From: an uncultured Verrucomicrobiae bacterium
GTDB taxonomy: Bacteria > Verrucomicrobiota > Verrucomicrobiia > Chthoniobacterales > UBA10450
NCBI GenBank assembly: GCA_963735805.1
Contig: CAVTMK010000002.1
Coordinates: forward strand, 224,001 to 288,000
Direction of reading: 5' to 3'
DNA: 64,000 nucleotides
The notes under the pieces are model-generated. The model saw only the letters and a list, made by a program, of their open reading frames with translations, was not told where the DNA came from and searched no databases. How positions within the stretch are numbered: position 1 is the stretch's first letter; each line of letters begins with the position of its first letter. The position numbers and the translations under genes were made by a program. Positions 21,008 through 22,803 of the stretch are shown piece after piece.

Positions 21008-21508
21008 ATGACTGTTGCACTCCGCGAAGTTACGAAGGAAGATCTGCCGATTTTTTTTGAGCATCAGCTGGATGCCGAGGCGACACGTATGGCGGCGTTC
21101 CCCAGCCGCGACCGCGACGCCTTTATGGCGCATTGGGCCAGAATCATGAGTAAGGAGACCAACGAGACCGGAATCCTAAACACCATCCTCGCGGACGGCA
21201 CCGTGGCAGGCAACGTCGTCTATTGGGAAGCGGCGGGGGAGCCAAACATCGCCTACTGGCTCGGCAAGACACATTGGGGGAAGGGGATTGCTAGTGCGGC
21301 CCTGGCCCAATTCTTGACCAAGATAGAGGCGCGACCAGTTTACGCGCATGTCGCAAAGCACAATTTCGCTTCGATACGTGTCTTACAAAAATGCGGATTC
21401 CAACTTGCACGAGAGGATATGTGCGATGGCGATGATGGCGAAGAACTTGTTATGGAGCTGCGCTCCGATCGTTGCGCCACGGGCGCCAATAAACCCACAA
21501 AGACCTAA
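21008..21508 (+). CDS. Cassette 1: GNAT (RimJ/RimL-like) acetyltransferase
   Basis: YWLGKTHWGKGIAS and NFASIRVLQKCGF; stop codon lies within ACCTAAC. Confidence 0.9.
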   Translation: MTVALREVTKEDLPIFFEHQLDAEATRMAAFPSRDRDAFMAHWARIMSKETNETGILNTILADGTVAGNVVYWEAAGEPNIAYWLGKTHWGKGIASAALAQFLTKIEARPVYAHVAKHNFASIRVLQKCGFQLAREDMCDGDDGEELVMELRSDRCATGANKPTKT

Positions 21509-21559
21509 CCAATCGATGAAGCCTCTATCTTCTTTAAAGGGGCGTTGATTTGGTGCAAA

Positions 21560-21752
21560 AGGGTGGCAGGTGCGCGATCCTCGATGAAGCGGCTTCTGGT
21601 TAGACCAAGAGCGTCCGTTAGTTCGATCCGTGCCTGCCCTTGGGCGTGTGAAGTAAACTCGAACAGTTACTGGAGCGACCAAGCCGGCCTTAAACCCCGA
21701 GGGCAAGACCGGCCTGGCCAGCTCGCATCTAAGAAGCAGGAGTTATTTACCA
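21560..21752 (+). ncRNA. Predicted IS110 bridge RNA
   Basis: Two stem-closed internal loops. Guides TCGATGAAGC (21581-90) and CCGTTAG (21615-21) match the target; ACAGTTACT (21663-71) and AGAAG (21732-36) match the donor junction. Confidence 0.85.
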
Positions 21753-21753
21753 C

Positions 21754-22683
21754 GTGAAAGAGGAACTTGTCTATTTAGGAGTCGATATTGCCAAGTCACA
21801 TCTGGATGCGGCGATTGGAGCACAAAAACATCGTTTCTGTAACGACAGGGTCGGCCATCGACAGCTAATCAGGTGGATTAAGCAAACTGAGGCTACAGTT
21901 CAGGTGATTTGCGAATCGAGCGGCGGTTATGAACGCAGATTAGTCCAGGCGCTTGCTGGTGCGCGGATCAAAGTCAGTCTGGTTCAAGCCAACCGGGTTC
22001 GGCAATTTGCGCGAGCGGCGGGAATCCTGGCGAAGACCGATCGCATCGACGCGGAAGTACTGTGCGAGTTTGGCAAGGTGATGCGGCCGCAGACAGTGAC
22101 CGCTGGGACGTTGGAGCAAGAACATCTGCGAGAGTTGGAGAGCCAGCGCAGGCACTTAACTCATTTGCTGGTGATGGAACAAAATCGCGGTGCGCGTGTC
22201 AGCAATGCCTCGGTGGTGAGATTGAATCGCAGTTTGATCAACCAAATCAAAAAGCAGGTTGAAAGACTCGATCTACTGATCAAAGAGCACATTGAACAGT
22301 CGCCCCGTCTATCTGCCAAGGCAGAGAAACTGACCTCAATCAAGGGAGTTGGGGAACGCACGGCGGCCTTACTGCTGGCGCAAATGCCCGAGTTGGGACA
22401 ACTCAATCGTCGTGAAGTTGCAGCTTTGGTCGGAGTCGCGCCGTTTAATCGCGATAGCGGAAAGATGCGCGGCAAACGCGCGATCTATGGTGGACGGCGT
22501 TTCGTTCGACATGGACTTTACATGGCCGCATTAGTCGCCGCGCGTCACAACCCAATCCTGCGCAATTTTTATCTGCGATTGCGAGCGGCTGGCAAACCGG
22601 CCAAACTCGCCCTCACTGCGACCATGCGAAAACTGCTGATCGTGCTCAACAGTGCGCTCAAATCCGATCTAATCTATGCTTGA
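21754..22683 (+). CDS. IS110 DEDD recombinase/transposase
   Basis: [14 protein letters not shown] and KTDRIDA (DEDD); C-terminal SIKGVG, RDSGK and LTATMRKLL. Confidence 0.96.
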
Positions 22684-22803
22684 AACCAAGACAGTTACTA
22701 ACGGTCCCATTTCGAGATGCGTTCAGTGTGTTTGCGCCGACACCCCGCCGTGACTTATCTCCGTCTCGTTAGGGAGCGGCGTGCCGGCTACAATTCACGT
22801 CAA

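Follow-up and report, generated by a model that had tools for sequence, protein, structure and literature searches.

Probable bridge-RNA-guided homing of an IS110-group insertion sequence to integron attC sites in a Verrucomicrobiae genome

Introduction

IS621 and ISCro4 are insertion sequences (ISs) of the IS110 group, in which a DEDD and serine recombinase is accompanied by a guide RNA encoded in a long left end (PMC11208160, PMC11208158). The RNA contains two internal loops, with left guides on the 5' side and right guides on the 3' side. In IS621, the left guides carry top-strand sequence and the right guides its reverse complement, and every guide takes in the core (PMC11208160). Both elements also have a CT donor core, a partly contiguous right donor guide and a promoter split across the junction of the circular form. 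The target of IS621 is a repetitive extragenic palindromic (REP) element. Integron attC sites are the target of certain IS1111-group elements (ISKpn4, ISPst6 and ISPa25), whose seekRNAs co-purify with the transposase and match both strands of attC (PMC11187229). The element considered here occupies positions 21524-22699 of a 64,000-nucleotide stretch of DNA (the window) from an uncultured Verrucomicrobiae bacterium (assembly GCA_963735805.1, contig CAVTMK010000002.1, positions 224,001 to 288,000 of the forward strand). In its predicted organisation, it is like IS621 and ISCro4 in all of the features listed above, but its target is an integron attC site rather than a REP element.

Homing to attC by this IS110-group element under the guidance of a bridge RNA is considered highly probable. 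An earlier interpretation, made without database searches (the sequence-only reading), had proposed such a mechanism, and it is supported here with corrections. In the proposed mechanism, the left end would encode a two-loop bridge RNA. The left target guide (LTG; CGATGAAG plus the first core base) would pair with the bottom strand at the L'' box of attC, and the right target guide (RTG; CCGTTAG) would pair with the core and AACGG on the top strand. The donor loop would pair with the joined ends of the element, the left donor guide (LDG) with ACAGTTA-CT and the right donor guide (RDG) with CT-TCT(A). The recombinase, a DEDD/Ser protein of 309 amino acids (aa), would then recombine the circular element into attC, just after L''.

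The element and its recombinase

The element lies on the plus strand, is 1176 bp long, and consists of a 230-nt non-coding left end, a recombinase open reading frame (ORF) and 16 nt after the stop codon. Its boundaries are defined by a second copy on the minus strand of the same genome (G000:C1:22470-23645), which is 98% identical and has the same ends, while the flanks of the two copies diverge outside 21524 and 22699. In the pairwise alignment, identity begins at TCTATC and stops at ACAGTTACT, and the outer flanks differ. In a public soil DNA run, contigs end at 21523 and restart at 22700, which is the pattern expected at the borders of a repeated element. A gapless search found neither terminal inverted repeats nor subterminal inverted repeats of at least 9 nt at the element's ends, and there is no target duplication at the element except for the shared core position. 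The trinucleotides AAG (22688-90) and CTT (21529-31) were seen by eye to flank the 14-nt donor, and a subterminal repeat of 2-3 bp is expected in the IS110 group. The right end closes with the donor segment ACAGTTA and the donor core CT (22691-22699, plus strand), as read from the sequence and from the right junctions of relatives.

Every string quoted in the sequence-only reading is found in its place by direct reading of the DNA. TCGATGAAGC occurs in the left flank (21513-22) and again in the left end (21581-90), and is present five times in the window where 0.34 copies are expected; none of 100 shuffles reaches five. ACAGTTACT occurs twice (21663-71 and 22691-99) against 0.16 expected, a count reached by one of 100 shuffles. 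Two additional copies of TCGATGAAGC, at 56166-56175 and 56676-56685, were considered as targets and rejected, being followed by unrelated bases; they lie inside an ORF (55430-56791), and probably arose by chance or belong to a coding motif that is repeated.

The recombinase ORF (21754-22683, plus strand) begins with GTG and encodes 309 aa. The protein contains the Pfam domains DEDD_Tnp_IS110 (PF01548, E = 1.1e-20) and Transposase_20 (PF02371, E = 1.2e-18), both above the curated cut-offs. Its best solved relatives in the PDB are IS621 (8wt6, E = 1.8e-34) and ISCro4 (E = 5e-33). In the phmmer alignment to 8wt6, residues D11, E54, D96, D99 and S235 align with D11, E60, D102, D105 and S241 of IS621, the catalytic roles of which have been described (PMC11208158). 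Together with the long left end of 230 nt, which holds the guides, and the short right end of 16 nt, these matches confirm the identification as an IS110-group element. Membership of the wider IS110 family agrees with insertion at a fixed site and in a fixed orientation, as seen at 41 left junctions and 57 right ones, in the absence of terminal inverted repeats. The protein was also described as compact; the size is correct, but it is only slightly below the 315-330 aa of the IS621 branch (PMC11187229).

In 401 genomes of the phylum, the nearest relative of the element outside its own genome is just 50% identical, and relatives from this search were thus of no use for guide covariation. A tblastn search of a plasmid collection yielded full-length matches of about 45% identity at best, and no close relative on plasmids. 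The comparison set used below comprises about 40 relatives from metagenome-assembled genomes (MAGs) of soil Verrucomicrobia and from metagenomes. The relatives from genome and metagenome contigs have 76-95% amino-acid identity, those with named records belong to MAGs of Verrucomicrobiae or Chthoniobacterales, and the sequence occurs in runs from metagenomes of soil, rhizosphere or plants.

Insertion into integron attC sites

The repeat split by the element is an attC site. Its left part (21503-21523, plus strand; positions 6-27 of the attC hidden Markov model (HMM) correspond to 21502-21523) consists of the R'' box ACCTAAC (21503-09), a spacer and the L'' box GATGAAGCC (21515-23), corresponding to the left target CGATGAAG plus the core CC. 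The right part (22700-22774, plus strand; HMM match 22697-22775, E = 6e-18) begins with the right target AACGG (22700-04), and continues through an inner hairpin region to the L' box GACTTATC (22752-59) and the R' box GTTAGGG (22768-74). Elsewhere in the genome, uninterrupted copies have the sequence ...YCTAACCAATCGATGAAGCC|AACGGCCCC...GGCTTATCTCTTTCTCGTTAGRY and follow the pattern YCTAAC-CAATC-GATGAAGCC|AACGGCCCC ... GGCTTATC-TCTTTCTC-GTTAGRY, so that the insertion point in empty copies is CGATGAAG-CC|AACGG. The repeats start with RYYYAAC (R'') and end with GTTRRRY (R'), as seen from the boxes in 13 full-length copies. Except for one extra G, the L'' box (GAT-G-AAGCC) complements L' (GGCTTATC), and one copy carries a compensatory GCA/TGC change.

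The genome encodes an integron integrase at C2:1278239-1279177, which scores 470.7 bits on TIGR02249, for which the cut-off is 265; this cut-off is passed in none of 14 control genomes. An attC profile built from six uninterrupted repeat copies has 50 matches in the genome, and 18 of them form a single-strand array (C2:1258372-1277526) on the strand opposite intI, beginning about 0.7 kb away. Wherever ORFs were checked along the array, each short ORF is followed by a repeat in the same orientation. The uninterrupted copies, the integrase and the adjacent array bear out the claim that the split repeat is an attC whose L'' box is read by the left target guide.

The insertion point is constant. 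Both copies in the genome sit between GATGAAGCC and AACGG, directly after L'', and a 16-nt remnant of the left end (C2:1536733) lies at the identical position of another attC. At 57 right junctions of close relatives, the sequence is AACGG in 45, AACCG in eight and different in four. Right flanks of at least 70 nt match the attC HMM of this genome in 36 of 51 cases, and six of the remainder have GTTRRRY 95-100 nt downstream. RYYYAAC is found within 30 nt in 32 of 41 left flanks.

In the attC that bears the remnant (G000:C2:1536711-1536822), GATGAAGCC is followed by just 16 nt from the start of the left end (TCTATCTTCTTTAAAG), and then by GTCCC of attC. This looks like the footprint of a third insertion, from which a deletion has removed everything from IS position 17 through the initial 4 nt of the right target. 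In one DNA contig, 21523 is connected to 22722 by 21 other letters; the contig has only 22 letters on one side, and is probably another empty attC rather than an excision at this locus. Metagenome contig L169 carries two left ends of the same IS type, at 1165-1418 (plus strand) and 3084-3339 (minus strand), about 1.7 kb apart, whose left flanks are almost identical; the pair may represent a composite arrangement or a duplication in inverted orientation.

The predicted bridge RNA

The predicted bridge RNA is about 210 nt long and is placed at 21537-21753 (plus strand) by the consensus structure and by covariation. Its target-binding loop (21565-21638) is closed by a basal stem in which 21565-79 pairs with 21625-38, including GGCAGGTGCG (21565-74) with CGTGCCTGCC (21629-38), and carries a distal hairpin at 21592-21612. 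The 5' side of the loop holds the LTG CGATGAAGC (CGATGAAGCG at 21582-91), and the 3' side holds the RTG CCGTTAG (21615-21), which is reverse-complementary to CTAACGG at 22698-704. By analogy with IS621, TT at 21622-23 are possible handshake nucleotides (PMC11208158). The donor-binding loop (21656-21744) is closed by a basal stem of AACTC (21656-60) and GAGTT (21740-44), and has a long distal stem at 21672-21728. Here the 5' side holds the LDG ACAGTTACT (21663-71), and the 3' side holds the RDG TAAGAAG (21730-36), which includes AGAAG at 21732-36.

This arrangement is recovered from an alignment of 38 distinct left ends. The RNAalifold consensus contains both closing stems and two internal loops holding all four guides, as the sequence-only reading had proposed from a single sequence, and 98.3% of cells are paired in the consensus structure. 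Changes on both sides of a pair affect six pairs and 20 cells, compared with 2.5 and 3.5 in shuffles, and none of 500 shuffles reaches the observed values. Five of the six covarying pairs are in the hairpin of the target loop. When the partners are slid by 1-3 columns, pairing falls to 28-46%. Support for the structure comes from the consensus fold and covariation, and not from energy.

Covariation of guides with target and donor

A check suggested in the sequence-only reading was whether the guides co-vary with insertion sites; this is the case for the LTG and the RDG, and in part for the RTG. The comparison covers 41 events, after duplicate rows (L152, L177 and L169b) were dropped. Between the LTG and the eight non-core bases of the left flank there are nine mismatches in the 41 events, where the mean of permutations is 28.9 and none of 20000 is as low, although the relatives are phylogenetically related and permutation figures such as these overstate independence. 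The LTG matches its own flank perfectly in 34 of 41 events, and for all seven variant LTGs (CGCTGCAG, CGCTGGAG, CGATGCAG) the fit to the adjoining flank is better than it would be with the majority guide. One correction concerns the start of the guide, which the sequence-only reading had placed at T 21581: this base lies outside the guide and does not follow the flank in L042, L136, L149 and L161.

When the RTG is compared with the right flank over its five non-core bases, 34 events give seven mismatches, where permutations give 11.8 (56 of 20000 are as low). Seven distinct events have an RTG that expects AACCG, six of them (all but L154) with a known flank, and three of them (L160, L122 and L161) are at AACCG. 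The RTG thus tracks the right flank partially, with three of six variant events fitting.

In the donor loop, the RDG matches the left end at position 2 in 40 of 41 events. Where the left end has TGT instead of TCT, all four distinct elements carry ACAAG instead of AGAAG. The LDG and the right end are both invariant, and hence uninformative for covariation.

Core asymmetry

In empty attCs the native target core is CC. The core at the left junction is CC in 34 of 41 cases, CT in six and TC in one, while at the right junction it is CT in 56 of 57 and CC in one. The CC at the left junction, which the sequence-only reading had given as a caveat, is the core of attC itself, seen in uninterrupted copies, and not an anomaly. 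The second core base of the LTG is G in 24 events, T in nine and C in eight.

In IS621, cleavage of the two top strands falls directly 3' of the core, and the strands are then exchanged (PMC11208158). Cleavage of the top strand 3' of the core would also account for the present junctions, since the left one would then retain the target core and the right one the donor core. A symmetric exchange of two strands with an unmatched core, followed by replication, should give both core arrangements; only one is seen, in all informative insertions, and thus the top-strand product appears to fix the sequence. This suggests that top-strand transfer 3' of the core, completed by replication or directed repair, determines the product sequence in nature. 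A preprint proposes that IS110 integration proceeds mainly by top-strand insertion, which fits the situation here (bioRxiv 10.1101/2025.10.25.684509).

Durrant et al. report that IS621 strongly prefers matched CT cores (PMC11208160). Unlike IS621 with this preference, the present lineage appears to tolerate an unmatched second core base. It is possible, although the balance is somewhat against it, that attC homing had an independent origin in the IS110 group, with the mismatch between the CC of the target and the CT of the donor acting as a built-in strand label. If this were true, matched cores would not be required in this lineage. The asymmetry itself offers a natural read-out of the strand that determines the product.

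Expression signals

A -10-like hexamer, TATCTT, is present at 21526-21531 (plus strand), its positions showing no variation or conservation of at least 90% among 38 relatives, and a -35-like hexamer, TTGAAA, is present at 22680-22685 (plus strand), where it overlaps the TGA stop codon; TTGAAA or TTGAAT is found in most of the 59 right ends. Across the circle junction the two would be 16 nt apart. They would form a promoter in the circular form only, and in the linear form no sigma-70-like site was found in 21400-22850. The sequence AGGAG (21738-42) lies upstream of the GTG start and overlaps the closing stem of the donor loop. In two of three soil RNA libraries, contigs cover the left end (X15, 21572-21774; X16, 21515-21812), with DNA carry-over possible.

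Alternative explanations

Several points weigh against guidance by a bridge RNA. The coverage in RNA libraries consists of contigs that may derive from DNA, and the kinship of the relatives diminishes the force of the permutations. The LTGs of L154 and L136 keep two mismatches to their own flank, and in L149, L136 and L178 the RTG expects AACCG yet the site is AACGG. A CT core shared by target and donor and paired by all four guides, as in a bridge RNA of the IS621 type, is not found, the target core being CC in 34 of 41 events, and the core positions of the RTG and the RDG would both mismatch a CC target core. This lowers the strict likeness to IS621, not the class of mechanism. Folded as a single sequence, the left end has a minimum free energy of -76.7, close to the shuffle mean of -76.9 (z = 0.05), and a scan of 20500-24000 found no Rfam family at E up to 1. 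The 7-mer CTAACGG taken alone is unremarkable in the window, with seven copies against 4.3 expected (15 of 100 shuffles). Finally, the canonical hairpin of R''/R' and L''/L' was not recovered, only the inner hairpin, either by DNA folding of both strands of an uninterrupted attC or by alifold of 13 attCs; the identity of attC thus rests on integrase linkage, the array and the boxes.

The unremarkable fold energy and 7-mer count would be in keeping with recognition of attC by protein-DNA contacts or by its folded structure, the matches in the left end being incidental or captured attC remnants without guide function. It is also true that attC sites are structured and that other attC-homing elements exist. 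However, the matches sit in two internal loops of a conserved structure, and the combination of one direct copy with one reverse complement is that of IS621 (PMC11208160). Moreover, the loop changes with the flank (CGCTGCAG, CGCTGGAG and CGATGCAG being the variants), to an extent equalled by none of the 20000 permutations, and the donor guide follows the C-to-G change of the left end in four of four events. Recognition independent of a guide is therefore regarded as very improbable. Equally improbable is the possibility that the element belongs to the described IS1111-attC group, as kin of ISKpn4, ISPst6 and ISPa21 with a guide RNA downstream of the recombinase gene. Target class, protein family and the RNA-guided principle are the same (PMC11187229), but here the non-coding region of 230 nt is upstream, merely 16 nt follow the stop codon, and all four guide segments are in the left end. 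The ends have no subterminal inverted repeat of at least 9 nt, and the best relatives among solved structures are the IS110-group elements IS621 and ISCro4.

The least credible alternative is that the split repeat belongs to some other dispersed palindromic family, either REP-like or similar to miniature inverted-repeat transposable elements, and that the integron link is coincidental. The missing canonical hairpin and the many copies outside the integrase-linked array would allow for this. Against it are the array of 18 matches on one strand, which starts about 0.7 kb from an integrase scoring above the model cut-off, the RYYYAAC start and GTTRRRY end, the placement of each repeat after a short ORF in the same orientation, and the complementarity of L'' and L' with one extra base and a compensatory GCA/TGC change in one copy. 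Dispersed attC clusters without an integrase are, in addition, a known feature of integron-bearing genomes. Bridge-RNA-guided homing to attC thus remains the preferred explanation.

Integron context

The interrupted attC belongs to the cassette of a GNAT acetyltransferase ORF (21008-21508, plus strand; Pfam Acetyltransf_3, E = 8e-20), the TAA stop of which falls within the R'' box. The next cassette carries a Rhomboid-family ORF (22781-23392, plus strand; Pfam Rhomboid, 7.7e-24) and is followed by a second attC of the same type (23421-23678, plus strand; HMM and sequence), in which GAAGCCAAC is followed by about 150 nt of inserted non-coding sequence. A diverged third attC-like site (24724-24838, plus strand), reading ATCTAAC ... 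CGTTAGAC, is tentative, with a weak HMM match at 24724-24751 (E = 0.069). Positions 21008-25464 of the window thus form an integrase-less cassette cluster, about 1 Mb from the integron proper, in which the GNAT and rhomboid ORFs, three small membrane-protein ORFs (one weakly EamA-like) and a DUF998 ORF are separated by two clear attCs and one diverged attC. In RNA-library run X17, a contig that ends at window position 21522 comes from a relative of the GNAT cassette with an uninterrupted attC. It continues with ...GATGAAGC-G-AACGG, the second core base being G in that relative.

At least seven attC sites contain non-coding inserts of about 25 to 177 nt, located between GAAGCCAAC and GGCCCC. 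They include 23447-23596 of the window (in the second attC), G000 C2:1264538-1264714, 1269933-1270109 and 1272455-1272631, C1:160495-160668 and C3:8764-8860. The inserts sit 3 nt downstream of the IS insertion point, and a related one is present in the right flanks of L043 and L129. Candidate explanations for this family are a miniature element or a long attC variant. Because an insert turns the right target into AACTC, it might protect those attCs from the IS.

The sole remaining perfect match in the genome to the inferred 15-bp target (CGATGAAGCCAACGG) is at G000:C2:1277512, in the attC of the first cassette beside intI. There are 11 more sites with one mismatch, nine of which are in matches to the attC profile.

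Comparison with described systems

The lineage is common in soil Verrucomicrobia, and its natural retargeting follows variants of the attC L'' box. The relatives thus provide a ready-made series of guide and target pairs for studies of specificity. With the arms of attC pushed 1.2 kb apart, the integrase should no longer recombine this cassette boundary, and insertion should in this way fix the borders of cassettes in place, with consequences for the dynamics of integrons. Seen as a tool, the element would be one more compact orthologue (309 aa) with a 15-bp recognition pattern; the principle is not new. The sequence-only reading had presented an RNA-level explanation of attC targeting. This is supported for the present element, but it is not new in principle, since the IS1111 group precedes it (PMC11187229). 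An IS110-group element that homes to attC was not found in the literature searched, in which subscription journals were thinly covered and the supplements of bridge-RNA papers were outside the scope.

Compared with IS621 and ISCro4, the present element has a natural target core that is mostly CC and mismatches the CT of the donor, and a protein of 309 aa. Its LTG reads eight non-core bases, rather than the seven read in IS621, and its right guide reads five. ISEc21, also of the IS110 family, requires its upstream non-coding region for circle formation and transposition, and shares with the present element a bottom-strand match located 5' of the top-strand match (PMC11187229). However, the target of ISEc21 is not attC but a conserved segment in the coding sequence of IS3-family transposases, and its protein has 358 aa.

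Among elements that do target attC, the group IIC-attC introns are likewise an RNA-based lineage (PMC3001079), but they are retroelements with a ribozyme and a reverse transcriptase rather than a recombinase with a guide RNA. The IS1111-attC group is closer, being composed of DEDD-family ISs that also occupy one fixed position and orientation in attC (PMC11187229). In these elements the RNA is downstream of the recombinase gene and there are subterminal inverted repeats of 7-17 bp, neither of which was found here, and their matches to the top and bottom strands follow the opposite order to those of the IS110 type (PMC11187229). The IS110-group lineage appears to have converged on attC. RNA-guided homing to attC would thus extend beyond the IS1111 group into the IS110 (IS621-type) group, and attC would have been targeted at least twice by elements with bridge or seek RNAs, besides the group IIC introns.

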